DNA of 64,000 nt from an uncultured Candidatus Saccharibacteria bacterium (lineage in GTDB: Bacteria; Patescibacteriota; Andersenbacteria; UBA10190), in contig CAYJQW010000004.1 of assembly GCA_964372635.1 (NCBI GenBank), positions 840 to 64,839 of the forward strand. The letters run 5' to 3'. Numbering within the stretch: the first letter of the stretch is position 1; every line of letters begins with the position of its first letter. A program made the translations under genes and the position numbers. Below, one piece after another: positions 9,601-26,179 of the stretch. The notes beneath the pieces were generated by a model. The model was not told where the DNA came from. It made no database searches and saw only the letters and a program-made list of their open reading frames with translations.

Positions 9601-10085
9601 ACTCGATACAAGACTCGTTCGCCGTCGTGTAAAATACGATAATAAAATTTTCTTTTCTCGTCCTCATCAAACATCCGTTCATCCGTATATTGCGCTTCTA
9701 GTTGCGCTTCCAGGTAATAACCAGAGACATTACCTGCGGTAACATCAGTTGCACAATAGACATAGGCGCGTCCTGATCTTTCACGGGTATCGTGAGGAAT
9801 AGCGTTTATATGCTGGCCCTTCAGCAGTGGCGAGTTGTTACCAAAAAGCCAGCTAGTTTGATCATCAGTGCTGGTACATATTTCACTTAAAGGCGGTGTC
9901 CCGTAGTTATCAAATTCATTGTTATATAATTCAAGGGCATGTTTTAAGTCTGTAATATCCTGACGGCGAAGATCATCGCGAACGGCAATTCTAGAGGAAA
10001 TAATACTGGGAATAAGAAATAAAAGAAGTAAGCCGAAGATCGTTGTCGCTGCCGCATACTCAAGCTGAATTCTTGTTAGATACAT
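9567..10085 (-). CDS. type IV pilin/pseudopilin-like protein with noncanonical prepilin signal
   Basis: ATG at 10085 with a stop 4 codons upstream. The N-terminal hydrophobic helix LEYAAATTIFGLLLLFLIPSII has a Glu at +5 relative to a possible cleavage after MYLT, but no Gly at -1. RDDLRRQDITDLKHALELYNNEFDNYGTPP follows, closely matching the DA.R..DL.QI..ALELYY.DNG.YP motif of CPR/Gram-positive-type pilins. Four Cys in the C-terminal part are consistent with a pilin disulfide domain. Confidence 0.5.
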   Translation of the reverse strand: MYLTRIQLEYAAATTIFGLLLLFLIPSIISSRIAVRDDLRRQDITDLKHALELYNNEFDNYGTPPLSEICTSTDDQTSWLFGNNSPLLKGQHINAIPHDTRERSGRAYVYCATDVTAGNVSGYYLEAQLEAQYTDERMFDEDEKRKFYYRILHDGERVLYRVCGGSELQCQE

Positions 10086-10557
10086 AACCCTAGATTACCA
10101 CGCGTGGTTTAGTAACGGCACGAATAAGTAGTCCTGCTACAATAAATAACCAGATAATAATTATTTGTTGGGCTCTCTTAGTTGCCGATGAATACACTAG
10201 AGTAATAGTTTGGCTGTGTTGATTAGGTATAACGAGATGAATTGAGCCATCGGCGGCCGGTAGAGCTAGGCCCTCTTGAGCTAGCCAAGATACAGTGTAA
10301 CGCTAATAAATAATAAAGGAGGATATTCCCAAATAAATGTCTGGCCGATACTCATCCCAGATGTCAAAATTAGATCCCTAGGCTGTTCGTGAGGTTCGTG
10401 GCGCTCCCCCCACTCAGGAAGCCTTGGAGAATTTAGCAACAGTATAGTCGATAAAAAGCTACCAAGTATAAATGTCCAGGATAGCAGATTCTGGTTGCGC
10501 GTTCGTCCAAAACGAGGTAGGGTCATGGGATGATTTTTATCATTATCTGCTCAACTC

Positions 10558-11652
10558 GTGAATACTAACGCTCAAATGAAAATCGGGACAGCTTCTAAAA
10601 TTTCTCGACCGGCTGATAATAAGATTTCCGGACAAGAGCGTGTTTTGGAGGCGCTGTCTCGGTTAAGTAAGGAAGTCAAAAAAATGCAAACGGAGTTTGG
10701 TTTGAGAGCGAAGCCAGCCATGAGCTCAATGATCAAAACGGAATGGGCTACTGTCAATGAGCCTGACTTATCAATTGAGACGATTTCACAGCCTGAAATT
10801 AATGCCTTATATGAGCTTCGGGCTGAATTATTAGATTGGGAATTAGAAACAGGATTTCTTGGTTTTTTTACGGATAATCCAGGTTATCGGTATGTGTTTA
10901 CGCGCCGACTGGAAATTCTTTTCGACATGCTCCCACTAAATATTAAAAATGCAGAAGTTCTTGAAATAGGCACAGCTGCCGGCATCGTGGCGAATTCCCT
11001 TGCCCCTTATGTTAGATTTTATACAGGGACTGACGTTACGCCGACTGCTCTAAAGTTTGCGGAAAACTTATCTCAGCGGCTCGGCTACTCCAATACAAAA
11101 TATAGGGTGGCTGATGGTCATTATCTCCCATTTACCAGCAATTCCTTCGATTTAATAATGTGTACTGAAACTTATGAGCATCTAGTTCGGCCAATCGAAG
11201 GCTTACGTGAAATGTGGCGAGTCTTAAAACCTGGTGGCACGGTCGCGTTTACTACACCGACAGCGCTAACACTTTCAGATTTGGCCATGAAGCTTATCCA
11301 GTTAATTAAGCGGGATATTCACGTTGAAGATACGGCTCAGTTTGATAAAAAAGCTTATTGGGCAGCCGAAAGGGAACATCGTAAGTTACCCCTGACTGCT
11401 TTTAAGCGGGTCCACTATCGCTTTGGATACGCCAAACTTGTACGTGATTTTACACAAGTTGGCTTTCAGGTTAAGAAATCCAAAGGAGCAGTATTTGGTT
11501 TGCCGCCGTATTACCTCGCGGCCTATCAACTATTACCAGGCTGGATATTGCCCGTGATTCGTCAATTTGAAGAACTTCTCAATGAGTGGGGTGTATTTGC
11601 GCGCTATGGTTCAGTGGCGACAGGATTTCAATTACTTAAACCAATAAAATAA
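10558..11652 (+). CDS. class I SAM-dependent methyltransferase
   Basis: Motif I VLEIGTAAGIVANSL and post-II motif VLKPGGTVAFTTP define a Rossmann-fold methyltransferase core at residues ~120-230. The track start at 10558 is GTG; the first ATG is at 10576. Confidence 0.75.
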   Translation: MNTNAQMKIGTASKISRPADNKISGQERVLEALSRLSKEVKKMQTEFGLRAKPAMSSMIKTEWATVNEPDLSIETISQPEINALYELRAELLDWELETGFLGFFTDNPGYRYVFTRRLEILFDMLPLNIKNAEVLEIGTAAGIVANSLAPYVRFYTGTDVTPTALKFAENLSQRLGYSNTKYRVADGHYLPFTSNSFDLIMCTETYEHLVRPIEGLREMWRVLKPGGTVAFTTPTALTLSDLAMKLIQLIKRDIHVEDTAQFDKKAYWAAEREHRKLPLTAFKRVHYRFGYAKLVRDFTQVGFQVKKSKGAVFGLPPYYLAAYQLLPGWILPVIRQFEELLNEWGVFARYGSVATGFQLLKPIK

Positions 11653-11752
11653 GTATAGTGCTACTGATCAGATGAGTGTCTGTTGGCTTACTTGCTAACA
11701 GATCACAAGTCTTAACCAGCTAAGCTTCTGCAGGCTGTGGTAGCGTATTTGT

Positions 11753-14173
11753 ATGCAAACTTTAGGGAACGCTTGGTGGAAATACATATTGCGTTGGGCA
11801 AAGCTGCCTTATTTTTGGCCAACTCTCATTTGTTTCGTTTTAGGTACGGCTTATTTTTTATCACCGGTCTATATGGAACGAGAAATACTGGCTCCTTACA
11901 ACGATGAAGCCCGCGTTGGTTTTGGCAGTACGAGGACGGTAGCCCAAGAATTTATTTCTCCCCATAAATTGCAAGCAATTGTAATTCCAATTGAGAGAGA
12001 ACCGAATATTGATGGACCACTTATACTGCACGTTCGTACGGAACTGAAAGGTCCAGATCTTATAACAAGCACCTTATTTTCTTTCACAGGTGGTCAGGCC
12101 AGATTTGACTTTAGTAAAATGTTGAATGGCGGGACTAAATATGTGTGGATTCTAGAAGCTCCAAACAATTTCGATAAAACGTCTTGGGTCTATTTGGAAC
12201 ATGATGAAACAGCCTATAATCATGGTAATTCGTACATTAAGGATACTCAATTAACTGGTAACTTTGGTTTTACTCTAATCCAAAGGAAATATCGTGGAGC
12301 ACACTTGTTTGAGCAATTATTGGCGGTAACACCATTCTGGGAATGGCGATCAGCCATTGTCGGCACAGTGGTGGCAAGTCTAGTCGCAACCTACTACAGC
12401 GCATTGAGAAAACCACACCATCGTGTTTCCTGGCTTCTCATATTGATATTAGCAACATTTGTCATTCATATTTTCTTGGCGCAGAGACTGCCAGCTGTTA
12501 CAGATGAGGGAGCATATCTTCAGGATGCCCAACAGGCGCAGCTGACATTCTTGCCCTTTCGAGATTATTTAACGAAAGGACCACTTTTTATTGGTCTACT
12601 GGCATCGTGGCAAAAATTATTTGGTTATGACTTGTTTACCGGTCGACTTCTTTCAGCTTTCATCTGGGCATTGGCTGTTTACTTAACGGCTATTTTTGGG
12701 CGCATCATTGATTTAAAAGGCTGGTATTATATCGCCGCCTTTGCGATGTCTGTACTTCCGGCAGCAGTTTCATTGACCACACCTATGCTCCTGCAAAGCA
12801 TGAGCACCGTTGTTGTGCTGGCTGGCCTCATTTTAGTCTTAAGAGGAGTCAAAGGTGATCATCTTGGCATGCTGATTTTTGGGGCATTATTACTTGCCGG
12901 TGGTTATCTTGTTCGAAGCAGCAGCCTTGTCCTTGTTATTACTGGGACAATCGCCATTATTTTGTATGGCCGACATCGCATAAAGGCCCTTATTACATAT
13001 CTTGCAACATATTTTCTATTACTCCTAATTATTTTTGCGATCAGTGTCAATGCAATTGGCATTGAACGAACCGCTATCATGTTTAATTTAGAAGCCTTTA
13101 TAATTTCTGGGCAAAGATCATCAACAGCCAGTGAGACTCGCGAACCAATCATTCGCCAGCTGACAAGTGACACTAGAACACTCTGGCGGAGCGCCCCGTG
13201 GTTTATGGCTGCGCTTGTGATGGTTCCCCCTATTATACTGCGGAAATTAGGTAAGAAGTTAAGAATAGTTGGACTAGTCGTGTGGCTTATTGTGCTCATC
13301 AATGTGTTCTTGCATCTGCGCGATATGCAATTCCTATTACCGAAATCCTTCCCTGTTACTACGGCGAGCATGGTAATTATTGTATTCGGGTTGCCAATAC
13401 TGTGGACATTATTTAGTTTTCAAGGGAAAAATCCCAATCGGCCTAAACCTGAAAAGACAATCCAGGTAAAATCATGGTTTACCAAACTGTCTTTTGACTT
13501 GAAGCTGGTCCAAAATTGGCGTGCCCTGCTTTTATTAGTTGCCTGGCTGGTCTTGCTGACAGGTCTATACTACTTTTGGCAGAATTTTCGTCAAAATTAT
13601 TTGATTGAATTTTTACCGCCACTTGCGTTACTCTCTGCTTGGGTCAGTGCTCAAGTAGCTGAAATATTTCAGTCTCTTACATTTCATAGGACCAAGAGGT
13701 TTATAACAGCTGGACTATGTGGTTTGCTAGCCATGTCAATCTATCAAGGTTATTGGCTGGCCGCTTCATATCCTCACACCGGTACCATTGATATAACTTC
13801 CCTCCAGGCTGTTTCCACTTTGGTAAGAAAACATGTCGAACCTGGTCAGGCTGTCTTTACCGCACAGCCACTTATAACTGCCGAGGCTTATCGTCCGATT
13901 GTTCTAGGTTACTCCCATCCAGGCTGGTATTTAAGTGAGCGGGTAGGTGAAGTATCATCATCGCTGCGGTCGATTTATTTTATGGAACCTCTTGCTCTCA
14001 CGTCATATCTCGAAACTACAGTCCAGTTTGTTTTGACTGATGATCGGACTCAAGAGGTATATTTTGATCAATACCCCGAACGTCAAGAAATCCTAAAGAA
14101 TAATTTTTTATTACTTGGCGAACTAAGTGATGGTCGTACGGAGGAACCGATGCGTTTATATAAAAAGATGTAA
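11753..14173 (+). CDS. GT-C-like polytopic membrane glycosyltransferase (paralog family A)
   Basis: ATG at 11753; 806 aa. It has an N-terminal soluble ~200 aa, then ~12 TM helices. The loop motif VTDEGAYLQDAQQAQLTFLPFRDYLTKGPLF and the C-terminal block FTAQPLITAEAYRPIVLGYSHPGWYLSERVG are shared with the 23525..25291 protein. Confidence 0.5.
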   Translation: MQTLGNAWWKYILRWAKLPYFWPTLICFVLGTAYFLSPVYMEREILAPYNDEARVGFGSTRTVAQEFISPHKLQAIVIPIEREPNIDGPLILHVRTELKGPDLITSTLFSFTGGQARFDFSKMLNGGTKYVWILEAPNNFDKTSWVYLEHDETAYNHGNSYIKDTQLTGNFGFTLIQRKYRGAHLFEQLLAVTPFWEWRSAIVGTVVASLVATYYSALRKPHHRVSWLLILILATFVIHIFLAQRLPAVTDEGAYLQDAQQAQLTFLPFRDYLTKGPLFIGLLASWQKLFGYDLFTGRLLSAFIWALAVYLTAIFGRIIDLKGWYYIAAFAMSVLPAAVSLTTPMLLQSMSTVVVLAGLILVLRGVKGDHLGMLIFGALLLAGGYLVRSSSLVLVITGTIAIILYGRHRIKALITYLATYFLLLLIIFAISVNAIGIERTAIMFNLEAFIISGQRSSTASETREPIIRQLTSDTRTLWRSAPWFMAALVMVPPIILRKLGKKLRIVGLVVWLIVLINVFLHLRDMQFLLPKSFPVTTASMVIIVFGLPILWTLFSFQGKNPNRPKPEKTIQVKSWFTKLSFDLKLVQNWRALLLLVAWLVLLTGLYYFWQNFRQNYLIEFLPPLALLSAWVSAQVAEIFQSLTFHRTKRFITAGLCGLLAMSIYQGYWLAASYPHTGTIDITSLQAVSTLVRKHVEPGQAVFTAQPLITAEAYRPIVLGYSHPGWYLSERVGEVSSSLRSIYFMEPLALTSYLETTVQFVLTDDRTQEVYFDQYPERQEILKNNFLLLGELSDGRTEEPMRLYKKM

Positions 14174-14176
14174 ATA

Positions 14177-15016
14177 TTATTCATTGCTGGACTTAATTTT
14201 GTGAGCTACTAGCCCCCATTCATAGCCACGTTTTAGCCGGAAAAAATGATCGAGCCGTGAGATTAGTCTTAAGAGAGGATAGACGATACGCAGATACCCC
14301 AGCAGCTGACGGTTTCCATTAACATCACCTTCAGAAGCTGGTGAAAGCGCTAAATTGTAACCCGCTGTTTTCTGTTGGCTACGATTTTTTAAAATATAAA
14401 ATCCGTTGTAAGCCAATTCAACCATCTCGGTAAAAAAGAAAGAAAATAGGTCAAAATCCTTTACTATTAGTCCGGCTGAGTCAGTTAATTTTTGTAGGGT
14501 GGACTTTGAAAATCCCTCAACAACGTGACCATGAGCAGCTTTATCAATACCGAATACATTTTCTGCAAAGTGTCTCCAGAAATATGGCCGACCATCATCA
14601 GCTGGTGTGGTTAAGATCACAACACCATCTGGGGTAAGTAATTCGGACACCCGACGCATAAAAGAGGCCGGATCTTGAACGTGCTCTATGACGTCGAAGA
14701 TGGTCACGATTTTAAAAGAACTCCGCGACAGTAAGGGATTATATATATCAATTTCATGGACCAAGCCATGAACAATCTTTCTCGTCTCGGCCGCCGCCGC
14801 GGCATCTGTTTCAGTAAATTCCCAAGTACCACCAAGACGCTCCAGAAGAACACTAAGCGTACCAACACCACTACCAATATCCAAACAAGGACAATCCTTA
14901 GCTTTCTTTTGTAGAGCTTGAAGCACCTTGGGTTTTGCCCACAACCATTTTTCTTTTTTCCTCACACTGACTGCAAAAACACGTAGCTGCCACGACTCAT
15001 TTTGTGCTGTTTTCAT
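14177..15016 (-). CDS. class I SAM-dependent methyltransferase
   Basis: Motif I CLDIGSGVGTLSVLL and LTPDGVVILTTP. Its start overlaps the stop of the upstream GT39-like gene by 4 bp (15013..15016). Confidence 0.75.
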   Translation of the reverse strand: MKTAQNESWQLRVFAVSVRKKEKWLWAKPKVLQALQKKAKDCPCLDIGSGVGTLSVLLERLGGTWEFTETDAAAAAETRKIVHGLVHEIDIYNPLLSRSSFKIVTIFDVIEHVQDPASFMRRVSELLTPDGVVILTTPADDGRPYFWRHFAENVFGIDKAAHGHVVEGFSKSTLQKLTDSAGLIVKDFDLFSFFFTEMVELAYNGFYILKNRSQQKTAGYNLALSPASEGDVNGNRQLLGYLRIVYPLLRLISRLDHFFRLKRGYEWGLVAHKIKSSNE

Positions 15017-16515
15017 AACTTATTGACTTTGAAGATCCAAACATAAGGTAGTCCGTTAATTTTAATAAGATGTTCCGGTTTTGGTTTTCCCGGGCCAAGA
15101 TAACTGGCCATCATTTCAGTTTCGGCAGCTCCAGGGCCGCGCTCAAACATGGAGCGGTACAAAATAATATAATCAGCCGAATTATTATCAGTATACGATA
15201 GTGAATCAGAAGGACCGGCATAGAAATAAGCAAAGACACGGTTATAGTAACTATGTACTTTAGCCTGTGGCGCTTGCTCAGAAATCCAAGCGGCGGCACT
15301 TTCTAAACCCTCGCCCCAGCCAAGCTTATGATCGGATTCTATTGGGTACAGTTTGTTATATTGAGCTAAATAATATGGATGGAGCCTAACATCATCAGCG
15401 GCTAACCACATTATTAATATCAGCGTAATCAGGTAGCCTACCATTCTCGACACATATAAACTATTGGCGAGCCAATGAATTATTATTCGCAAGCCGAATA
15501 CGCCTGTTAAAATAAATGTGAGTAGGGTGAGCAGTATATACCGGTCACTTTTATCGGAACTGAAGCTTAGAATGATCGCATAGACAATGCCGGCTAGTAA
15601 AAGCCAAAATACGGTTCGGCCCATTTTTTTATATCGTCGCAGACCCAAGCCAATAAGACCGAAAGGCACAAGAATGGTAGTGATCGGTGTAAGTCGGAAT
15701 AATCCATCACGGGCGTAATACCACCAGCGAGAAGTTGTCTCTAGGCTGCGTGTACCCTGGGCATGCAGAGTAAGTCTTTCTGAAACGTAGTTATACACGC
15801 TATCTGCTCCCAGCCAAAGGGCTGGCCATAAAATATACGTAGCTAAGATTATTATTGCGATCCAGAGCAGTATCATGTTGATGCCAGATCGCCAGGAAAA
15901 ACGAAGTTGTAAGAAAGTGACCGTGAGAATAACCAGAGCAGTAGGTATGAGTATAATGGCAAACATTTTTGTAAGCAGGCTCCCGGCGGCCAGGATAGCA
16001 CTGGCAGCCAGATAATGTTTATTCAAGGGTTCTTTGTGATGCAACGGTTCTAGGGCTGCCAATAAGGCAACTAGACTTGCCAGATAAAAAAGGGCAAGCA
16101 GGGCATCAGTATGCGCCAAGCGACTGTGAGCTATAAGAAAGGGGTCAAGAGCCAGGAAGAAACCGGCTGTCAAACCCCAGCGGCTGCCCCACAGCCTTGT
16201 TAGAAAATAAGTTATTATTAATATCAAAATACTGGTTGCGACAGCCACTGCTGCTTGATCTGCGGCTAAGGAGTGCCACCGATTACTTAATCCGATTAGC
16301 CAGGCTGTTGTCACGCCAGGCTGACCAGCCACGAGAGTTTTATCAAACTGGCCGGTTGAAAAAGCTTGCATAAAGCTGGCACCACGGTTTTGCCACAAGG
16401 GTTCATCGACAGTTAGAATTGATCCTAGTTGAAAGAGCCGAGGACTAAATACAGCCAAGAGAAATAGTGCTATGACGATCAGTCGATTAGACTGAGACGG
16501 ATTAGAGGCAGTCAT
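15013..16515 (-). CDS. ArnT/PMT-type (GT39/GT83-like) membrane glycosyltransferase, polyprenyl-phosphate-sugar dependent (paralog family B)
   Basis: 500 aa, 11-13 TM helices. The first extracytoplasmic loop after TM1 carries the DE motif typical of ArnT/PMT-family GT-C enzymes (LGSILTVDEPLWQNRGASFMQAF). It is paralogous to 21967..23463. The stop overlaps the upstream GT2 start (16512..16515). Confidence 0.6.
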   Translation of the reverse strand: MTASNPSQSNRLIVIALFLLAVFSPRLFQLGSILTVDEPLWQNRGASFMQAFSTGQFDKTLVAGQPGVTTAWLIGLSNRWHSLAADQAAVAVATSILILIITYFLTRLWGSRWGLTAGFFLALDPFLIAHSRLAHTDALLALFYLASLVALLAALEPLHHKEPLNKHYLAASAILAAGSLLTKMFAIILIPTALVILTVTFLQLRFSWRSGINMILLWIAIIILATYILWPALWLGADSVYNYVSERLTLHAQGTRSLETTSRWWYYARDGLFRLTPITTILVPFGLIGLGLRRYKKMGRTVFWLLLAGIVYAIILSFSSDKSDRYILLTLLTFILTGVFGLRIIIHWLANSLYVSRMVGYLITLILIMWLAADDVRLHPYYLAQYNKLYPIESDHKLGWGEGLESAAAWISEQAPQAKVHSYYNRVFAYFYAGPSDSLSYTDNNSADYIILYRSMFERGPGAAETEMMASYLGPGKPKPEHLIKINGLPYVWIFKVNKL

Positions 16516-17207
16516 TTATGGCGTGCAAAACGGCGTCCTCGTAGTCGGTAGGCAAACAACATGGCCAAGGACTTAAAGCCATCGCGGTATGTTATTTTTT
16601 TACCCTCAGCATGCGTACGAGCGCGATAATTTGTAGGCAACTCCTTAATCTTGAATCTGTGATCCAAAATCTGAAGCGTGATTTCCATATCGAACTCAAA
16701 GCCAGTTTTCTCAAGGTGTAAAACTTTTACAACTTCTTTTGTAAACACTTTGTGACCGGTTTCAACATCTGTTAATCGTTGCCCAAGTAGAATGTTCGTT
16801 AGTATTGTCATAGCTTTATTCTCTAGACGCTGAATAAAGTATAATTGGTTTTGCTGCAAAAAACGGGAACCATAAACGACACTTGTCTCGCCGCGTAAGA
16901 TGGGGCTTATCAGACTTGGAATCACTGTAGGGTCGTATTCGCAATCATCATCCTGAACGACGATAATGTCGCCGCTGACATAACGTAAACCAGTCTTAAT
17001 TGCTCCACCCTTGCCAGTATTATGATCATGCAAAATAACTTTTACGTTTTTTAAACGCTGTAAGATTTCCCGACTACCGTCAGTAGAAAAATCATCGACG
17101 GCTATTATTTCATAAGGGATAGGATATTTTACAGCCTGAATCTGATTCACGGCTTGCTCTATAAAATCCCTATCGTTGTATACGGGAATTAGAATTGATA
17201 GTTTCAT
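16512..17207 (-). CDS. GT2 polyprenyl-phosphate sugar synthase (DPM1/ArnC/GtrB-like)
   Basis: KLSILIPVYNDRDFIEQAV, IAVDDFSTDGS and VVQDDDCEYDP give the GT-A DxD signatures. The small soluble form (231 aa) resembles dolichyl/undecaprenyl-phosphate sugar synthases. It is translationally coupled to the GT39-like gene downstream. Confidence 0.75.
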   Translation of the reverse strand: MKLSILIPVYNDRDFIEQAVNQIQAVKYPIPYEIIAVDDFSTDGSREILQRLKNVKVILHDHNTGKGGAIKTGLRYVSGDIIVVQDDDCEYDPTVIPSLISPILRGETSVVYGSRFLQQNQLYFIQRLENKAMTILTNILLGQRLTDVETGHKVFTKEVVKVLHLEKTGFEFDMEITLQILDHRFKIKELPTNYRARTHAEGKKITYRDGFKSLAMLFAYRLRGRRFARHK

Positions 17208-18180
17208 GGGTTACATGCTCACGCCAATAGGACATAAGATCAGGAATAGTTTTATTAAGAAAAGATATTTTTGGCTGCCAACCAGTAGCGAGACGAAACT
17301 TAGTGTTGTCCCCAATGATAATACCACCATCAGTTGGGCGGGGTCCGGCCGGATCCAGTTTCAATTCAATCGGAGATATTTCTGATCTGACTAACATCGT
17401 CTCATATATTTCTTTAATTTTAGTGCCCCGACCTGAGCAAACGTTATAAACTTCTCCTGGCTGACAAAACTCAACTGCTGCCACATAGGCCCGAGCAATA
17501 TCACGTACGTCTGTAAAATCGCGGACGGCAGATAAATCCCTATATGTCACTTTTGCTGGTACCAGACCCTGTTCAATTAAGGCTATGGTATGGGCCAAGT
17601 GGCTGTCACCAAAGGCTGTTGGTCGACGCGGTCCCGTATGATTGAAGACCCGTAATCTAATTATATTTAGTTGGTAGGTGTGCCAGTATTGAAACCCAAG
17701 ATAATCCTGACCAATCTTTGAAACTGCGTAGGGGGAGCCGGGTAGCAACTCGGCACTTTCCTGAATCGGCAACTTGTGTCGTTTGCTTAAGCCATATTCC
17801 TCAGACGACCCCGGGATAATAATTACGGGGTTGTAGGTTATGGTTTTTAACTGACGCAGTGTTTCGAGAATATTAGCTTGCCCGAGTATATTTGTTATAA
17901 GGGTGGCTTGCGGTGATTCCCATGACGTTCGCACATAACTTTGCGCAGCTAAATGCCAAATGACGCTTGGCCTAACCATCTCAAGCAGGGAAAATACAGA
18001 CGATTCATCGGTAATATCAACCTCATGAAGTTGAATCTGATCTTTAATATGCTGAATGTTCTGAAGTGACGCCTTAGGCTTTCGCGTACCATGAATTCGA
18101 TATTCAGAGTGTTCAGATAGTAATAGTTCAGCCAAGTGACTGCCCGTAAATCCCTCAATACCAGTTATCAATATATTCAT
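17170..18180 (-). CDS. NAD-dependent nucleotide-sugar epimerase/dehydratase (extended SDR family)
   Basis: N-terminal Rossmann motif ILITGIEGFTGSHL (GxxGxxG) and catalytic YAVSK (YxxxK). The track start at 18243 would overlap the next gene. ATG is verified at 18180 (MNILITG) and is preceded by GAGAGAG. Confidence 0.75.
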   Translation of the reverse strand: MNILITGIEGFTGSHLAELLLSEHSEYRIHGTRKPKASLQNIQHIKDQIQLHEVDITDESSVFSLLEMVRPSVIWHLAAQSYVRTSWESPQATLITNILGQANILETLRQLKTITYNPVIIIPGSSEEYGLSKRHKLPIQESAELLPGSPYAVSKIGQDYLGFQYWHTYQLNIIRLRVFNHTGPRRPTAFGDSHLAHTIALIEQGLVPAKVTYRDLSAVRDFTDVRDIARAYVAAVEFCQPGEVYNVCSGRGTKIKEIYETMLVRSEISPIELKLDPAGPRPTDGGIIIGDNTKFRLATGWQPKISFLNKTIPDLMSYWREHVTHETINSNSRIQR

Positions 18181-18205
18181 AGTCTCTCTCTTGTATAAGG
18201 GAGTC

Positions 18206-19840
18206 TTAAAGCCAACGCAATGTGTGAACAGGCACAATTTCAAGAACGCCAGTGTCCCAAACTCTTTCTTTTTTTACCTCTGTCTTCACAATCGTATTGT
18301 CGACTGTCAACCGGCGGACTATCTCAAGAATACGGGGATCATCAGGTGTCTCAATTAAATAGACAATCTTGTACTGGCGTAACAGGTCAATTAGATCTTC
18401 GGGGTCCGCAGCTGGATACGTATTTAAGTAAAAACCCAGCTGCTGATTGCCTAGCTCTGTACCGGACTCTATTGTTCCAAAATAAAGAGTTGCAACAGCT
18501 TGATCAGTCGTTAAAGCAACAGGTTTAGACTCATGTGCTAAAGAAACTATCGATCGATACAAAGCATAGCCACGATAATTCTCTTCCCACGCACGTCCGG
18601 TTGCTTGTCGCATAAGGGTCTGGCTTTCCGAGCTCACTATCCAAATCGCCGCAGTCAGCAATGTTACGGCTAAGGCCTTCGGCCAAATCCAACTTTTCGA
18701 TTGAATATATAATCGATATGTCCCGGACAGTAAAGCGCTAAAGCCCGCGGCTGCAGTAAAATAATATACTGCAGATAAGGGAGCGACGTAGCGACTATAT
18801 ACCCACCACCATGACAGTAGTAATGTGTATCCAGTACCAGCGATAATAATCGGTAAACCAGCTTTTCCGTTTCTTATGATTATCCAAGGCACTCCAAGGA
18901 TCGCCAAGATGCTGAGCCACCAAGTCGTTGATAATAATATTCGGTTTGCCGCACCTGATTGCGGATTTTGACTGATCTCAAAGTTGGGGATTGACCAAGC
19001 TTTGCTGAAACCGGCACCATTGAGCATTAGTAAACCATTGATCGGGATTTGTTTAATCTCACCAAAGCCTCCATCAGCGGAGATTGCATCTGCCACATAT
19101 GGCAAATTAGTGATTGAACCGTGAATTGCAAGATGCGCTGGTATCCAGGCAATGATTGCTGCTACTGGAATCACCGACGCTCTCAAAACTTGTCGCCATG
19201 AAAGCCTGATCCACAAAAGCGGCCATAAAAGGCTGGCCACAATTAATCCTTCGTAACGTGTGAATATGAGGCAAGTAGTTACAACACCAAGCCAGAACAA
19301 CTGACGTCGGGACGATTTCGGTTTCAAAATAACTATTGTGACACAGTACACTGTGAGTACCATGAAAAAAACGAAGGTACTATCAGCTAATGGCCGAATG
19401 GCATTCAGCATTAGTAGCGGATCAAAAAGTGACAAGCCTAGGAATAGAAGTAGAGCGGCTCGATAAATTTTTAAGCGCCTACCCAGTGCATAAAGCGTTC
19501 CAACGCTAATGGCCGAGGCAGTTAGACTTATTATTACGCTCATTGGTATATATTCAATTGGGAATAATCGCGAGATTAGTATTAGAATACCGTACATTGG
19601 CAAGCGTTTCTCATGAGGTGGATATGAAAGATAGCCCAAGTTTTTGGCAATATGTTGGAAATTAAAGGCATCGCCAGCAGGCATAATACGACGTTCGAAG
19701 GCTATCGGGGCACGTACCAGCAGGGCAAAGATAATCAATAAAATTATGATTATGCTATCAATTTGGTAGGCAGTCACAGATTTAGTGTAGTTTGGTGCAC
19801 CTAACACGTACAGACGATCATAACCAGTGATGGCCGCCAA
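18206..19840 (-). CDS. polytopic membrane protein, GT-C-like, function unassigned
   Basis: 544 aa with ~12 TM helices in the first 420 aa. The soluble C-terminal ~120 aa are likely extracytoplasmic. Confidence 0.45.
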   Translation of the reverse strand: MAAITGYDRLYVLGAPNYTKSVTAYQIDSIIIILLIIFALLVRAPIAFERRIMPAGDAFNFQHIAKNLGYLSYPPHEKRLPMYGILILISRLFPIEYIPMSVIISLTASAISVGTLYALGRRLKIYRAALLLFLGLSLFDPLLMLNAIRPLADSTFVFFMVLTVYCVTIVILKPKSSRRQLFWLGVVTTCLIFTRYEGLIVASLLWPLLWIRLSWRQVLRASVIPVAAIIAWIPAHLAIHGSITNLPYVADAISADGGFGEIKQIPINGLLMLNGAGFSKAWSIPNFEISQNPQSGAANRILLSTTWWLSILAILGVPWIIIRNGKAGLPIIIAGTGYTLLLSWWWVYSRYVAPLSAVYYFTAAAGFSALLSGTYRLYIQSKSWIWPKALAVTLLTAAIWIVSSESQTLMRQATGRAWEENYRGYALYRSIVSLAHESKPVALTTDQAVATLYFGTIESGTELGNQQLGFYLNTYPAADPEDLIDLLRQYKIVYLIETPDDPRILEIVRRLTVDNTIVKTEVKKERVWDTGVLEIVPVHTLRWL

Positions 19841-19982
19841 TTAAATATCATTTAGTATGCTAATAAAACGGTCAGTGTCAAAGGAAAATTACCCTTTGAC
19901 TAGACCCATCGCGTTACATAATTATTTGTATTTCTCTTTTTTCAGTTGACGTGTCGTTATTAAGCACCGCAATCTAAAAGAT

Positions 19983-21182
19983 ATGCAATCTAAAATGAAA
20001 CGCGTTCTGATGATAGCTCCGACTCCTTTTTTTTCTGACCGAGGTTGTCACATGCACATTGCGGAGCAGGCCTACGCTTTGCAGCGTCGAGGGTTATTAG
20101 TTGAAATTGTTACCTACCACTTGGGACGAGACTTACCAGGACTATCAGTGACACGAACTTTAACGATTCCTTGGTATCATAAACGTGGGCCCGGGCCATC
20201 ATGGCATAAGTTTTACGTTGATCCATTGTTGCTAATAACCGCCTGGAGAGCCGCCCTGCGTTTTCGACCGGATGTAATTCATGCCCATCTTCATGAAGGC
20301 GCTGTGATCGGTTGGCTGTTGTCAAAGATTTTGTCAATTCCACTTATCTTTGATATGCAAGGCAGTCTAACCGGTGAGCTTATAGCTCATCGTTTTTTAC
20401 TAGTCAGACCAATGATCTTACGTCAAGCTTGGTATCGTCTAGAATACTGGATTGATCATATGGCGGACGCCATAGTCGCGCAATCTACAGAAATGCAGCG
20501 GGAGCTTTCCCATAAGTTTTTAGTGCAAAAATCCCGCATCATTATGGCTTTTGACGGAGTAAATACCAGTGTTTTTCATCCGGGCAATCGAGATAAGCTC
20601 CTGGTGCAAAGTCTTAATATTCCAGCTGACAGAAAAGTTATAGTCTACTTAGGAGGCTTGAGTCCGCATAAGGGTGTAGATATTTTACTCGAGGCTTTTC
20701 CCAAGATCATAGTAGCAGTGCCGAAAACATTTCTATTACTTATGGGATATCCGAATGAAGAATTTTATCGGAAGCAAGTCCTAACTATGGGGTTAGAGAA
20801 TGATGTAAAAATAACCGGAAAAATTCCTTATGAAGATGCGCCACGTTATTTAACTCTTGGCGATATAGCTGTGGCTCCCAAACGGTCACAAACTGAGGCA
20901 AACGGAAAAATATATAATTATATGGCATCTGGTTTACCCACTGTTGCTTTTGACACTGTCGTCAACCGTGACATTTTAGGAGACCTTGGTGTTTATGTGC
21001 ATAATCTTGATGACGTCGACGGCTTGGCTCAAGCCATCATCTCACTACTAGGGGACGATCAAACTCGTTCTCGTTTAGCAGAAGAAGTGAGGCGTAAAGC
21101 CGTGGCCTACTATTCTTGGGATGGTGTTGCTGAGCGTCTCGTTAAAGCTTACGAACAGGCCAGCCGGCAAGCAGCCCGTTAG
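19983..21182 (+). CDS. GT4 family (GT-B) glycosyltransferase
   Basis: ATG at 19983. The C-terminal half has the GT4 signature (GGLSPHKGVDILLEAF; YPNEEF...). Length is 399 aa. Confidence 0.7.
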   Translation: MQSKMKRVLMIAPTPFFSDRGCHMHIAEQAYALQRRGLLVEIVTYHLGRDLPGLSVTRTLTIPWYHKRGPGPSWHKFYVDPLLLITAWRAALRFRPDVIHAHLHEGAVIGWLLSKILSIPLIFDMQGSLTGELIAHRFLLVRPMILRQAWYRLEYWIDHMADAIVAQSTEMQRELSHKFLVQKSRIIMAFDGVNTSVFHPGNRDKLLVQSLNIPADRKVIVYLGGLSPHKGVDILLEAFPKIIVAVPKTFLLLMGYPNEEFYRKQVLTMGLENDVKITGKIPYEDAPRYLTLGDIAVAPKRSQTEANGKIYNYMASGLPTVAFDTVVNRDILGDLGVYVHNLDDVDGLAQAIISLLGDDQTRSRLAEEVRRKAVAYYSWDGVAERLVKAYEQASRQAAR

Positions 21183-21188
21183 GTTATT

Positions 21189-21926
21189 TTAAGCTCGACG
21201 CCCAACTCCTAAAATGTTTTTGGTAAAAATTGTCGTATCGGTGCGTCCGTACAATTTGAATATCAAGTACCATAACTTATTCAATAACGCCGCCGCTACT
21301 CGAGCTGTTACATTCAACAGGATGTTAGGCGTAACGTAAATATCGGTTCCATAAATTTTAACTTTGTCAAAATCGGCCATGAGTAGAGTTTGCTTCAAAC
21401 TATGCTGGTCGAAGCCAACCTCATGGGTGATATCAATATACCTACCATCATTACCCAGCAGAGGATTACCCATATTCGGCACTTTAACCAGAAAGACGCC
21501 GCCAGGTTTCAGGTTGGTTCTGATCAACTCAAGCATGTGCCACATAGTTGGCTTAACCTGATGTTCTAAGACGTCATTTAGAATGAATGCATCGACCGGG
21601 GCCGTGAGATTTTCCAGATAAGCAGTTATTTCTGACTTGAGTACAGGTAATTCTTTCCTCTGACAAAAAGCAATGACCTCACTACCCACGTCCACGCCAA
21701 GTATATTCTTATAGCCAGACCGCCTCAAAAAATAAAGAAAATGACCCAGACCGCTACCCAAATCGACAATGCGAGCATCTCGATTTGTTGGCAAATGCGG
21801 TAAATAATTCCGGCGAAAATAACGTTCCTGAATGCTAAACTCGGTATCCCCTTCACGAGCACCACCAAAATGCTGGGATAAGTATTTTGCATATGTCTGA
21901 CTTACATCCATCGGTGATTGTCGCAT
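21189..21926 (-). CDS. class I SAM-dependent methyltransferase
   Basis: Motif I IVDLGSGLGHFLYFL and LKPGGVFLVKVPN. Confidence 0.75.
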   Translation of the reverse strand: MRQSPMDVSQTYAKYLSQHFGGAREGDTEFSIQERYFRRNYLPHLPTNRDARIVDLGSGLGHFLYFLRRSGYKNILGVDVGSEVIAFCQRKELPVLKSEITAYLENLTAPVDAFILNDVLEHQVKPTMWHMLELIRTNLKPGGVFLVKVPNMGNPLLGNDGRYIDITHEVGFDQHSLKQTLLMADFDKVKIYGTDIYVTPNILLNVTARVAAALLNKLWYLIFKLYGRTDTTIFTKNILGVGRRA

Positions 21927-21966
21927 GAAGATTATTCTGACTGATTCATGCTACATTGTCGACATT

Positions 21967-23463
21967 ATGAATCGAAGCACACTGATAGTCTTGGTAGGTA
22001 TCTTTCTAGTAGCATTGGCACCTAGGACCATGCAGCTGGGTGCTTTTTTGTCCCCGGATGAACCTCGATGGCTTCTTAATACGCAGGAATTTGTGCTTGG
22101 ACTTAAGTCAGGTGATCTGTCGCGCCTTTATCAACAGCCACACCCGGGAGTTACCACTATGTGGCTGGCGTCACCAGTTATTGAATATTCATGGGCCGTC
22201 CGTCGTCTGCCCGCTGCGATCGCCATATCTTTCCTCCTGACAGCTACCACTACTCTCATGATGCAACTATGGGGGCGTGGTCTTGGTGGTAGTATCGGCT
22301 TTCTTTTGGCAATTAATCCCATCTTTATCGCCCACTCTCGCGTTCTGGCCATGGATGCCTTGCTGAGTATTTTTCTGCTCCTTTCTATTGTCGCCTTACT
22401 GCTGTGGTGGCGCGATAGAAAACAGTGGCAGCTGGCCATATCGGCTGTTAGCGGCGGGCTAGCCGTACTTTCCAAGATCGTTGGTGTTATAATTTTTCCC
22501 TATACAATAGCCATATTTACTTGGTTCTTGATTTTTCGTCAGTTATCACTCAAACGAGGTACAAAATCAGGGTTGCTTTGGCTTATTATATTTTTTCTCA
22601 CGATAATAATTGGACTGCCAACGATTGTGGTTGATTTTGAGCGTGTGGCTCAGGGCACTCAAGAATTCTTCGCAACGGAGCATTATAGTCAAACTGTGCA
22701 CGCTCTGGGCCCACTTTGGTATCCGCAAGCCCTACTAATCTGGACCACGCCACTGCACTGGCTTGGTTTACTTTTATTACCAACCCTAGTCTGGTCTAAG
22801 TGGCGCTATCGTCGCGATGTCGTATTACTTTTTCTTTTCGCTGCCGTTTTCTTCTTAACAGTTCAGTATTCTATTAAAAAAGGAGACCGCTATTTGTTGC
22901 CAGACTTTCTAATTTTTGATGTCATCACAGTTCTCTCAATTTCCGCAGCTATAAATTTTCTCTATACTCGCTTGACTTCTTTTCGCGGAAGAACATACGT
23001 CGCCAGAGGATTCTTTCTTATTATCTTTTGTCTTGTTGTTTGGCAGGTCATGATGGTAGTAACACTTCATCCTTATACCTTGGCATATCGGAACCCGCTG
23101 TGGCGCCCGATTGCCCTTGGTCGAACTATGGGTTGGGGGGAAGGTCTCGATCTAGCTGCACAGTATTTGAATTCAAAACCTCAAGTCGAGCAGATGCTGG
23201 TCGCTGCCTACTATGAAGGGCCGTTTAGCTATCGTTTTAAAGGTCACGTTACTTCGGCGGAAAGATTAGCTAAGGAGACCATATCTGATATTGGCGCTGA
23301 TTATGTTGTTTTGTATCGAACTATGATTGGCCGTGATCAGGAGCGCTGGGAAACAAAAGTTTTAGCTCAATTTTCTCATCAAGAGCCGGAGCATGTAGTT
23401 GTATTAAACGGAGAGGATTACGCTTGGATTTATAATACCAGTCAAATATCTAAAGACGACTGA
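21967..23463 (+). CDS. ArnT/PMT-type (GT39-like) membrane glycosyltransferase (paralog of 15013..16515)
   Basis: ATG at 21967 (MNRSTLIVLVGIFL). The track start at 21925 would overlap the divergent methyltransferase start. GAFLSPDEPRWLLNTQEF matches the DEP loop motif of the 15013..16515 protein. The C-terminal YAWIYN resembles YVWIFK in the paralog. Confidence 0.6.
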   Translation: MNRSTLIVLVGIFLVALAPRTMQLGAFLSPDEPRWLLNTQEFVLGLKSGDLSRLYQQPHPGVTTMWLASPVIEYSWAVRRLPAAIAISFLLTATTTLMMQLWGRGLGGSIGFLLAINPIFIAHSRVLAMDALLSIFLLLSIVALLLWWRDRKQWQLAISAVSGGLAVLSKIVGVIIFPYTIAIFTWFLIFRQLSLKRGTKSGLLWLIIFFLTIIIGLPTIVVDFERVAQGTQEFFATEHYSQTVHALGPLWYPQALLIWTTPLHWLGLLLLPTLVWSKWRYRRDVVLLFLFAAVFFLTVQYSIKKGDRYLLPDFLIFDVITVLSISAAINFLYTRLTSFRGRTYVARGFFLIIFCLVVWQVMMVVTLHPYTLAYRNPLWRPIALGRTMGWGEGLDLAAQYLNSKPQVEQMLVAAYYEGPFSYRFKGHVTSAERLAKETISDIGADYVVLYRTMIGRDQERWETKVLAQFSHQEPEHVVVLNGEDYAWIYNTSQISKDD

Positions 23464-23524
23464 TCTTTAATATGCCGCAATCATCACGATTTCAGTTATC
23501 GCCAATTTGCATCCCAGGAATCAC

Positions 23525-25291
23525 TCAGTTTTTTTTGTGATACAGAATGATCGGCTGTTTTGGTTCGTTGCTAACTGTAACTATTGGCTCAAAGTCTTGT
23601 TCAAGGAGAGTTCGCAGAGGCTGTGTCTCTTTGGCTCCGGGATTAAAATAAACATCCGTTGTTCGCCAGTCAACGACAATCCAATTTACATCGCGTGCTA
23701 CTTGAGAAGTTAAGTCAGGCAGATCTGGAAAATATATGCGGCGAATCGATGCCGGCATAAAACCGGCTCTCTCGGCCAAGTACCAGCCAGGATGAGTATA
23801 CAGTCCATATAAAGACCTGTGTCCTAAGAAGGCAAATACTGGTTGAGCGGTAAATATCGTTTCATTTTCTGCTACTAGGTTTTTAATTTGCTCGGCCATT
23901 TTCAGAGCCGCTCTTGTCGTAATCGTTCCACGATATTGTCTGTCCGATATGGCGAGGTATGGATAAGTTATTGAAAATATCAAAAACGCTGCCATTAATA
24001 TTGATAGCGGGAAAGTGCCGGGCAAACGCATGGACCAAAGTGACTTAAATAAAATAGCACTCGTAATCCCGGCGGCAATAGCTAGGGGTGGTATTGCTTC
24101 TAAGACATAATAAGGCGTTGGCTCACGGCCCCAATAATGATAAAATACCAGAACACTACCCAGCCAAATAGCTAATCTTAATATAGGTATGTTGATCGAT
24201 TTTGAGGTAGAGTCACGTTTTTGGTTTATCTTTGAACCAGAATAAGAAAGTAAAGTTAGCCCACATATAGCGAACAGGCCAAGATAAGAAATATTTGCGT
24301 ATTGACGAACCATCTTCATAGCATCACCACTCCAGTACTCTCCAATATTATTCAATACGGGGCCATACAGATAGTAGGCACCAGTTATAAGTGCAGACAA
24401 AAACGCCAGTTTTAAATACCAAGTGCCTGCCCGAAAGCTTAAACCGATCCCTCCAATTGCAAGAATCACCAATGGCAACCCTTCATACCATAGAGGAATA
24501 AACCCTCGAAAGAGCTGTTGTTGAGGACTAACCGATTCTTGGGTGTAAGCCGTCCGTTGATCATTGGCAATTAGTGTTGCATCAGCATTAAAAAAGAATG
24601 CTGTCTTAGGCCAACCATATAAAGGATAAATGATCGCTATGGTCATTGCTAGAAGGAATGCACCGACTAGACAAAACATTATCACCGAACGCCATGACTT
24701 AGTCTGAATAATCAAGACCGTTAAAATAATTGGCAAGGCCGAGATCGCCGTTGCTCTGGTCAGCGTAGCTAGAAAGAAGAAAAACGCTGCAATAATGATG
24801 TCGCGGCGGCTCACATGATTTCCGCTCACCAGCCATAAACTTAATAGTATCAGCGTTAATTCTAAGGAAAAATGCATGACGTTTGTTGTCAAGCTAACTG
24901 GTGCGGCCGATAATCCCCACAATATGGCCGCAACTATACCGACAGTTGTTGAATTAGTGAGGCGACGAGCCACTAGGTAGAGTAGCGGAATCGACATCAC
25001 GTGAAATAAACTAGAAAACAGGCGACTGGCAAAAATGGTTTGTCCGAGCAGTACTTGCCAACCTTTAAGAAGATATAGAAAAACTGGGCCTTTTGTAGCA
25101 CCAAATTCGCGGAAAGGCAGAACCTTCGCACTAGCCTGCCAAGCGTCCTGCATGTAGGCACTCTCGTCTTCGACAATATTGAGAATCGGAATGAGGTTAA
25201 TATGGATGGCCATAGCGGCCAGCATAATACCGCCAATTATTGTCGCAGAATTAGTAGCCAGTTTTATGATTGATATGGACATACGAATCAA
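23525..25291 (-). CDS. GT-C-like polytopic membrane glycosyltransferase (paralog of 11753..14173)
   Basis: 588 aa. NIVEDESAYMQDAWQASAKVLPFREFGATKGPVF and FTAQPVFAFLGHRSLYGLYTHPGWYLAERAG match the corresponding blocks of the 806-aa protein at 11753..14173. About 12 TM helices. Confidence 0.5.
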   Translation of the reverse strand: MIRMSISIIKLATNSATIIGGIMLAAMAIHINLIPILNIVEDESAYMQDAWQASAKVLPFREFGATKGPVFLYLLKGWQVLLGQTIFASRLFSSLFHVMSIPLLYLVARRLTNSTTVGIVAAILWGLSAAPVSLTTNVMHFSLELTLILLSLWLVSGNHVSRRDIIIAAFFFFLATLTRATAISALPIILTVLIIQTKSWRSVIMFCLVGAFLLAMTIAIIYPLYGWPKTAFFFNADATLIANDQRTAYTQESVSPQQQLFRGFIPLWYEGLPLVILAIGGIGLSFRAGTWYLKLAFLSALITGAYYLYGPVLNNIGEYWSGDAMKMVRQYANISYLGLFAICGLTLLSYSGSKINQKRDSTSKSINIPILRLAIWLGSVLVFYHYWGREPTPYYVLEAIPPLAIAAGITSAILFKSLWSMRLPGTFPLSILMAAFLIFSITYPYLAISDRQYRGTITTRAALKMAEQIKNLVAENETIFTAQPVFAFLGHRSLYGLYTHPGWYLAERAGFMPASIRRIYFPDLPDLTSQVARDVNWIVVDWRTTDVYFNPGAKETQPLRTLLEQDFEPIVTVSNEPKQPIILYHKKN

Positions 25292-25432
25292 GCATAGGTT
25301 GTTCTATTAGATTGAGTCTAGCATTATTAAGAGAATTCAATTTCAAACTAAATCACTAAAATAAGCATAGAGCTAAATTAAAATTTAACCGATGATTAAA
25401 AGAGTCCGGCAAAACTTTAGATCAGATATGGC

Positions 25433-26173
25433 ATGTTAAATCATATGATTGAATCCAAAAAAAATGTCATTTTAATACCAACATTTAATGAGGCACCCAA
25501 TATCGTTCTCATGCTTCAGGCGATCTCCCGGGTCGATCGGGATTTGAATATTCTGGTAATTGACGATGCTTCTCCCGATGGAACAGCCGATCTTGTCTCG
25601 GCCATGAAAAAAAATCACTTTGGAATAATGATCTTGCATCGAACAAGCGACCCCGGTTTCGCGCAATCCTATATTAATGGTATCAAGCTGGTTTTGGAGC
25701 AAGGTAAGTATGATGTTATTACAACTATGGACGCGGATTTCTCTCATGATCCAGCCGAAATCCCGCCTATGATGCGCTTAATATTTAACGGCGCTGATGT
25801 TGTGATCGGATCTCGCTATGCCAAATTACAGGATTTTTCGCACATCCCACTCTGGCGTAGACTGCTTAGCCGCTTTGCAAATTTTTATGTCCGATCAATC
25901 TTACGATTGCCAATTAGAGATTGTACTTCAGGATATACGATGTGGCGAGCTTCAGCCCTGGCAAACATTAATCTCAAGACAATACGAACGGAAGGATATG
26001 GTTTTTTATTTGCCCTAAAATATCAAGCTTATCGTCAGGGATTGCAGGTTGTTGAGCATCCGGTTAAATGGCCTGATCGTCATCTCGGTGCCTCAAAAAT
26101 GAATTTCAAAAGAATCTTCGAATCCGCATTACTACCTTGGAAAATTATTTGGAATAGTGCCAACGATAAATAA
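25433..26173 (+). CDS. GT2 polyprenyl-phosphate mannose/glucose synthase (DPM1/Ppm1-like)
   Basis: ATG at 25433. VILIPTFNEAPNI, VIDDASPDGTADLV and TTMDADFSHDP are classic DPM1-like motifs. Soluble, 246 aa. Confidence 0.75.
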   Translation: MLNHMIESKKNVILIPTFNEAPNIVLMLQAISRVDRDLNILVIDDASPDGTADLVSAMKKNHFGIMILHRTSDPGFAQSYINGIKLVLEQGKYDVITTMDADFSHDPAEIPPMMRLIFNGADVVIGSRYAKLQDFSHIPLWRRLLSRFANFYVRSILRLPIRDCTSGYTMWRASALANINLKTIRTEGYGFLFALKYQAYRQGLQVVEHPVKWPDRHLGASKMNFKRIFESALLPWKIIWNSANDK

Positions 26174-26179
26174 TAGCCT

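Follow-up and report, generated by a model that had tools for sequence, protein, structure and literature searches.

The 64,000-nucleotide stretch of contig CAYJQW010000004.1 analysed here (the window, positions 1-64000) is occupied over all of its 64 kb by a single glycan-biosynthesis island, and two convergent pairs of membrane protein genes in it are the subject of this study. Gene A (11753..14173, plus strand) encodes a GT-C-type membrane glycosyltransferase of 806 amino acids (aa) composed of an N-terminal extension of ~225 aa, a GT-C core and a C-terminal domain; it faces gene B (15013..16515, minus strand), whose product of 500 aa is another predicted GT-C glycosyltransferase. The second pair consists of B' (21967..23463, plus strand; a GT-C glycosyltransferase of 498 aa when read from the ATG at 21967) and A' (23525..25291, minus strand; 585-588 aa), the latter comprising the A-family core and C-terminal domain. 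The host genome is Andersenbacteria-like (Patescibacteria, or candidate phyla radiation, CPR), the named homologs come from Candidatus Andersenbacteria and other Patescibacteria, and the region forms the central part of a conserved island for surface-glycan biosynthesis. An earlier note on this DNA had interpreted the layout as the mirror image left by an inverted segmental duplication. We favour a different explanation, to which we assign a probability of roughly 0.6: the four genes are ancient paralogs belonging to A/B modules of a conserved glycan island, and their mirror layout is secondary, having arisen by a later inversion of a four-gene block.

The paralogy itself is clear. All open reading frames (ORFs) named in the earlier note were recovered where it had placed them, and the peptide blocks it quoted are present in their translations. 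BLASTP with compositional adjustment aligned A with A' at 27% identity over 607 aa (E 7e-39) and B with B' at 30% identity over 519 aa (E 5e-51), nearly full length in both cases, and when the 49 long ORFs of the window were compared with one another, A-A' and B-B' were reciprocal sole matches at E<=1e-3. The family profiles of A and A', compared with hhalign, matched with a probability of 100% (E 2e-85) over 563 columns. Thus, the paralogy and opposite orientation of the two pairs were correctly recognized, the similarity being far beyond chance. That unrelated multi-pass membrane proteins look alike through shared composition has the low identity (27-30%) in its favour; set against it are the E values obtained with compositional adjustment, the profile-profile match and an arrangement conserved in about ten genomes, and we give this explanation practically no chance.

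Profiles and structural models place A, A', B and B' among the membrane glycosyltransferases of GT-C fold (PMT_2/ArnT-like; CAZy GT39/GT83-like), in two subfamilies, A-type and B-type. A' (41.5 bits) and B (35.2 bits) pass the Pfam cutoff of PMT_2 (PF13231; 26.1 bits), and B' (29.4 bits) passes that of PMT (PF02366; 22.7 bits). A reaches 16.7 bits on PMT_2, which is below the cutoff, and is joined to A' by the profile comparison described above. Nine or more transmembrane (TM) segments are predicted from hydropathy. AlphaFold2 models of A' and B had mean confidence values (pLDDT) of 87.4 and 91.9, respectively, and their top Foldseek matches in the PDB were all GT-C enzymes (probability 1.0, TM score about 0.5), namely AglB, STT3, ArnT, PglB and ALG12 for A' and STT3, ArnT, ALG9 and Pmt4 for B, with DPY19 and AftA/D also among the matches of the two models. 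Invariant acidic residues directly follow the first core TM helix (D37/E38 in B, E41/D42/E43 in A', D251/E252 in A), and this D-E motif is conserved across all clades. Between the two subfamilies the relationship is distant (hhalign probability 84%, E 8e-6), and their C-terminal domains carry different motifs, GWGEGLE in B-type and FTAQ...HPGWY in A-type proteins. Sequence searches of the PDB with B and A' returned no match, and in NCBIfam A, A' and B' matched no family and B had only a sub-threshold match to Agl23. We know of no characterised member of either subfamily.

How far the mirror image extends was judged from the genes accompanying the two pairs. Within the first arm, MT1 (14177..15016, minus strand), a class I S-adenosylmethionine (SAM) methyltransferase gene (Methyltransf_23, E 3e-16), lies downstream of B with an overlap of 4 nt, and GT2a (16512..17207, minus strand), encoding a DPM1/ArnC/AglJ-like family 2 glycosyltransferase (GT2; Glycos_transf_2, E 3e-34), abuts B on the other side. 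The second arm holds MT2 (21189..21926, minus strand), a class I SAM methyltransferase gene divergent from B' (Methyltransf_23, E 9e-13), and GT2b (25433..26173, plus strand), which encodes a second DPM1/ArnC-like GT2 (Glycos_transf_2, E 3e-24). The convergent pairs A> <B and B'> <A' are the reverse complement of each other, and to this extent the mirror image stands. It does not include the other genes: arm 1 reads A-MT1-B-GT2a and arm 2 MT2-B'-A'-GT2b, MT1 lying between A and B and MT2 outside B', with GT2a next to B and GT2b next to A', so that gene content is not in mirrored order. Nor are these genes specific paralogs. The similarity of MT1 and MT2 is confined to the generic SAM-binding region (27% identity over 116 aa, E 2e-4). 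GT2a and GT2b are 25% identical, and the best paralog of GT2b in the window is 41266-41988 (35%, E 9e-49). Hence, while a methyltransferase gene is indeed found beside each B-type gene (MT1 at B, MT2 at B') and the GT2 genes do resemble polyprenyl-phosphate-sugar synthases, as the note had stated, the GT2 flanks are not mirrored. A methyltransferase gene as part of a duplicated unit with B was considered and rejected, MT1 and MT2 being no closer to each other than any two class I methyltransferases of the island; as duplicated partners the two also differ in side and strand relative to their B gene. Each B-type gene has its own methyltransferase partner, MT1 and MT2 being unrelated. At the nucleotide level the arms are without similarity: within 10500-27600 inverted repeats do not exceed 26 nt and direct repeats do not exceed 27 nt, and accordingly no repeat of more than 27 nt links one arm to the other.

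Comparison with the loci of relatives (L numbers), all set with p172 and the divergent gene A at the left, revealed two gene orders. The tandem order, found in five genomes (L005, L006, L007, L085 (Andersenbacteria JACPWQ01) and L086), runs from leftward p172 and rightward A through an optional MT1, B (fused to GT2a in some), an optional Epi-GTC3 pair and a methyltransferase gene, all leftward, to a block of rightward A', leftward B', rightward MT2 and leftward GT4, followed by leftward X, rightward GT2b, leftward CMT and rightward MT4. Among these genomes only L085/L086 have MT1, and only L007/L085/L086 have Epi-GTC3; L087 resembles them in part. In the mirror order the four-gene block is reversed, and this arrangement is shared by four genomes, the window, L084, L001/L003 and L002/L004, with flanks that are collinear between mirror and tandem genomes. 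A single inversion, of the block GT4-MT2-B'-A', thus separates the window from its tandem relatives. Besides, the window lacks both genes that border this block elsewhere, a methyltransferase gene of 235-237 aa, which tandem-type relatives carry at the left breakpoint (19841..19982), and gene X, which relatives have between the block and GT2b, at the right breakpoint (25292..25432); these two bordering genes have been lost in the window. X encodes a PMT_2 GT-C protein of 528-555 aa (L086 15017-16624, L085 15775-17394, L001 8400-9986, L002 8340-10004, L005 2355-4022), and because L002 keeps it in place, the right breakpoint is fixed between A' and X. Neither repeats nor mobile elements were found at the breakpoints, and the left and right breakpoints share no repeat. 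That GT2b touches A' in the window results from the inversion together with the loss of X. Since orientation is labile, it is not readable as a trace of the duplication mechanism. The inversion as such resembles ordinary local-inversion polymorphism in operon clusters, with collinear flanks and one internal four-gene block reversed between two sub-lineages, and there is nothing unusual about it.

These observations bear directly on the proposal that a single head-to-head inverted segmental duplication of A-MT-B(-GT2) made the mirror order, which would then be primary, and that the copies were sub-functionalised afterwards. The true paralogy and opposite orientation of A/A' and B/B' agree with it, as do the occurrence of the mirror order in four genomes including the window and paralog-to-ortholog distance ratios that are similar in the two families (about 1.95 and 2.2). 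However, the arms share no nucleotide similarity, the methyltransferase and GT2 genes are neither duplicates nor mirrored, the usual neighbour of GT2b is X and not A', five relatives are tandem with the same flanks, and the nearest relative of B is not B' (see below). We therefore abandon this part of the earlier note and regard such an event as very unlikely.

A rearrangement of another kind is seen with an asparagine synthase (AsnB-like) gene, which separates A' from B' in two relatives of the mirror type (L001 11719-13593; L002 12721-14598) and is 18 kb off in the window (3178-5043), a difference that indicates further rearrangement of the island.

The paralogs are old. In about ten other genomes ortholog identities amount to 32-41% for A, 38-51% for A', 41-57% for B and 45-52% for B', whereas cross-paralog identity is 25-31% in every genome. 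Ortholog identity being well above paralog identity, the splits are older than the divergence of all sampled relatives, and the two modules were already separate before the sampled Andersenbacteria diverged. This bears out the note's description of the pairs as old, diverged membrane-protein (glycosyltransferase) duplicates.

The A and B families differ in breadth. An exhaustive HMMER search of 1.84 billion proteins yielded 242 representatives of the A family at E<=1e-3. Its tree unites A, A' and C3, a clade of proteins of 800-866 aa, with 99% support, and within this group A+C3 is obtained in 64% and A+A' in 31%; hhalign scores are 870 for A-C3, 655 for A-A' and 561 for A'-C3. Judged by these comparisons, A' is specifically related to A, yet C3 is at least equally close to A. 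The B family is broad: a scan with a pattern built from the ortholog alignment (a pattern from B alone gave no match) detected more than 150 loci, mostly of Chloroflexota, with identities of 25-31%, which is the level of B versus B'. The blocks shared by B and B' (DEPxW, GWGEGLE, YxVLYR, YxWIY) are family-wide, Chloroflexota included. Thus, the outcome that the earlier note had named as telling against a specific duplication, namely family-wide blocks and copies no closer to each other than to other members, was found for B/B' and is half true for A/A'. Several Chloroflexota loci (L024, L027, L033, L052, L063, L081) contain arrays of three to five tandem B-like GT-C genes, many of them 800-1090 aa long and extended at the C terminus, and A-like neighbours were not seen there; the B family is expanding independently in that phylum.

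The following points weigh against the explanation favoured here. A neighbour-joining tree of the B family (200 bootstraps; 97 sequences, 477 columns) unites B with T2, another clade of Patescibacteria, in 100% of replicates, and B' forms a 100% clade of its own that is not sister to B; B+B' was recovered in 0% and B+T2+B' in 7.5% of bootstraps, B' associating loosely with Chloroflexota homologs. The profile score of B-B' (536) is the lowest among the B comparisons (T2 976, Chloroflexota 649, Bii 581-637). With B' placed off B, the B tree gives no support to a single co-duplication of the pair, except on the assumption that B' is a long branch, and the distances behind these neighbour-joining trees are saturated (about 1.8-1.95). 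The A' clade divides into one half of mirror and one of tandem genomes, a pattern that fits an inversion in either direction. The functions of A, A', B and B' are all predicted from homology. Finally, a search that included small ORFs found no GtrA/SMR-type flippase beside the arms or elsewhere in the window; Wzx/MurJ-like proteins are encoded 20-40 kb away, and GtrA_DPMS_TM genes occur near A'/B' in L085 and L002.

The position of B' invites a scenario without duplication of a pair, in which A' arose by duplication within the A lineage and B' was recruited separately, possibly by transfer, from the broad ArnT/PMT_2-like family shared with Chloroflexota, its adjacency to A' having been assembled or kept by selection for co-expression. 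It would account for BLAST scores of B' that are as high or higher with Chloroflexota proteins (up to 208 bits) than with B orthologs (156-194 bits), for the contrast between a small A family and a broad B family that reaches Chloroflexota and other phyla, and for Chloroflexota loci in which no A-like neighbour accompanies the B-like genes. Yet, in at least four paralogous lineages, an A-like gene has a B-like gene as its immediate or near neighbour, and three relative orientations occur, which would require repeated rebuilding; moreover, the pairing (A,C3) in the A tree is congruent with (B,T2) in the B tree, and the scores of B' are low whichever group it is compared with, which looks like the effect of a long branch. 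Separate recruitment of B' is thus possible, though in our view doubtful.

Ancient A/B modules, as favoured here, are suggested by the recurrence of the pairing. A convergent A ortholog is located directly downstream of B in 7/8 B-ortholog loci; A' and B' are adjacent or one to three genes apart; C3 is one gene away from T2 in L014; a set of three codirectional genes, Epi> A''> B''>, is present in L015, L017, L018, L020 and L026; and in L010 and L011 a B copy has a divergent A-like neighbour of 762 aa. Pairing and tree congruence favour duplication of a two-gene module, which the position of B' does not confirm. The origin that we consider most likely for the two modules of the window, at about even odds, is an ancient duplication, probably in tandem, of one convergent A> <B module.

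The recurrent pairing of an A-type with a B-type gene suggests a two-enzyme unit. It is tempting to go further and to speculate that A-type and B-type GT-C proteins are obligate partners, either as a hetero-oligomer like Pmt1-Pmt2 or EmbA-EmbB or in consecutive steps on one acceptor, and that the module was duplicated as a unit several times in Andersenbacteria and related Patescibacteria (A/B, A'/B', C3/T2, A''/B''), diversifying a surface glycan or glycoprotein. We rate this extended model as rather improbable.

The functional clue to the B-type enzyme comes from GT2a. The two genes, which together span 15013-17207, overlap by 4 nt, and in 13 database orthologs (e.g. P0045, P0060, P0072) GT2a and B constitute one polypeptide of 699-741 aa; at the level of loci such fusions are found in L007 (9317-11461), L085 (4437-6626), L086 (4424-6613) and L087 (6019-8169). 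By the Rosetta-stone argument, fusion of the two in orthologs points to GT2a making the lipid-linked donor for B. GT2a is thus probably a polyprenyl-phosphate-sugar synthase supplying B, and a polyprenyl-phosphate-linked sugar is the most likely donor of B in view of its fusion to, or overlap with, a DPM1/ArnC-like GT2. In NCBIfam the nearest models of GT2a and GT2b are AglJ, PpgS, dolichyl-P-hexose transferase and ArnC, all below cutoff. These GT2-GT-C fusions offer a clean, testable link between donor synthase and transferase. GT2b was considered as the donor synthase of A or A' and rejected as unsupported, because relatives have it beside X and the C-methyltransferase gene and not beside A'.

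Upstream of GT2a, in the same operon as GT2a and B, lies Epi (17170..18243, minus strand), which encodes a nucleoside diphosphate (NDP)-sugar 4,6-dehydratase/epimerase of the short-chain dehydrogenase/reductase (SDR) type (GDP_Man_Dehyd, E 1e-66); in NCBIfam it is gmd/LegB/RmlB-like, with all scores under the cutoffs. GTC3 (18206..19840, minus strand) encodes a third GT-C-like membrane protein with a weak PMT match (21.1 bits) and is the first gene of the minus-strand operon GTC3-Epi-GT2a-B-MT1. Orthologs of Epi (59-64% identity) upstream of GT2a and of GTC3 (42-45% identity) in the same position are present in L001, L007, L085 and L086. We propose that Epi would modify a nucleotide sugar, which GT2a would load onto polyprenyl phosphate; the lipid-linked sugar may then be flipped to the outer face of the membrane, where B, by analogy with ArnC/ArnT and Gtr, would transfer it from the polyprenyl-phosphate carrier to an extracytoplasmic acceptor at the cell surface. 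A, A' and B' might act like B, with other donors or acceptors.

Extracytoplasmic glycosylation by three components, i.e. a GT2 polyprenyl-phosphate-sugar synthase, a flippase and a GT-C transferase, is exemplified by the GT136 pentofuranose system of Citrobacter (PMC11127046). As with ArnC/ArnT and Gtr, the window has a DPM1/ArnC-like GT2 gene beside a GT-C gene and an NDP-sugar epimerase/dehydratase gene in the operon, and its GT-C models match ArnT at a TM score of about 0.5. Sequence identity to ArnT, by contrast, is about 13%, no dedicated GtrA, SMR or MATE flippase gene was found beside the arms of the window, GT2 and GT-C are fused in many orthologs of B, and two GT-C types are paired. 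Protein O-mannosyltransferases (PMT, CAZy GT39) are a second point of reference. Likenesses to them are the Pfam PMT/PMT_2 matches, the D-E motif in the first outer loop and, for the B model, a TM score of 0.55 with Pmt4; the keeping together of two distinct family members, A-type and B-type, is reminiscent of the obligate PMT heterodimers and makes an A-B complex conceivable. The structure matches of the A' and B models include PDB 6P25, the yeast Pmt1-Pmt2 heterodimer. Unlike PMT, the proteins of the window are without MIR domains, and their C-terminal domains differ. In the mycobacterial envelope, the polyprenyl-phosphate-mannose synthase Ppm1, a GT2, serves GT-C enzymes (PMC3485146). The presence of several GT-C paralogs in one envelope-glycan locus is similar in the window, and, by analogy, so may be the dependence on a lipid-linked sugar made by a GT2. 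EmbA and EmbB are side-by-side paralogs that form a heterodimer (PDB 7BVC/7BVF, among the structure matches of the B model); here the similarity is at the level of the fold only (TM score about 0.4), and A-type and B-type proteins are mutually remote whereas EmbA and EmbB are close paralogs.

With respect to the individual genes, A is distinguished by the extension formed by its residues 1-225 (window 11753-12430), which is conserved, contains the motifs GPLILHIR, WILEAPH and GNFGF and has no Pfam match; it is absent from A' and present in the C3 clade. The database version of A' (P0001, 585 aa) begins three codons within the TTG-initiated ORF. The longest ORF of B' starts at 21925 and would overlap the start codon of the divergent MT2 by 2 nt; lengths of 485-498 aa in B' orthologs favour the ATG at 21967, the choice made in the earlier note.

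Divergent to the A-type gene, and a neighbour of it in every relative examined, is p172 (9567..10085, minus strand), which codes for a small single-pass membrane protein of 172 aa with a single hydrophobic helix at its N terminus and a soluble part that contains Cys; it matched no Pfam family. Its orthologs (41-57% identity) directly adjoin A in L003-L010, L022 and L085-L087; in the window, and in this genome only, MT0 (10558..11652, plus strand; a class I SAM methyltransferase gene, Pfam Methyltransf_11/31/25) intervenes between p172 and A. The p172 protein could be a partner or an acceptor of A.

The methyltransferase genes next to the B-type genes are conserved in position. Orthologs of MT1 (59-62% identity) are found downstream of B in L003, L084, L085 and L086, i.e. 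in five genomes together with the window, and are absent from L004-L007, where B abuts A. Those of MT2 (58-76% identity) lie directly beside B' in L001, L005-L007 and L084-L086 and three genes away in L002; adjacent and divergent to B', MT2 is conserved in eight genomes. GT4 (19983..21182, plus strand), part of the inverted block, encodes a cytoplasmic GT-B glycosyltransferase (Glycos_transf_1/Glyco_transf_4), and its orthologs (66-71% identity) adjoin MT2 in L005-L007 and L084-L086. In L003 (7985-9904; also L001 19565-21484) a fusion of the GT4 ortholog with a methyltransferase domain (614-639 aa) is encoded, and its gene has moved between GT2a and B, splitting a pair that is fused in other genomes.

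On the right, GT2b is followed by the collinear flank genes CMT (26180-27550, minus strand), encoding a Methyltransf_13/14 C-methyltransferase, and MT4 (27474-28226, plus strand), encoding a class I methyltransferase. GT2b orthologs (54-60% identity) are found beside X and CMT, and not beside A', in L001, L002, L005, L006, L085 and L086, and orthologs of CMT and MT4 (55-64% identity) occur in the same order in L001, L002, L085 and L086.

A, A', B and B' are an ordinary addition to already known GT-C glycosyltransferase families, and a literature search found no paper combining Patescibacteria with 'glycosyltransferase family 39'. The mirror layout itself carries little weight, being a rearrangement polymorphism, and the paralogy reflects old family structure among the GT-C glycosyltransferases. 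Of modest value is that envelope glycosylation takes up, in candidate-phyla bacteria whose genomes are very small, at least 64 kb of conserved island and five or more GT-C enzymes, a large investment. In all, the island holds at least five GT-C-like genes, about five GT2 and about nine GT4 genes, six methyltransferase genes and genes for three Wzx/MurJ-like proteins, and it also encodes YfhO-like, DUF2079 and DUF6311-like membrane proteins. Synteny continues beyond the two arms, the segment 28290-38452 of the window being syntenic also in L011, L017, L018 and L084.

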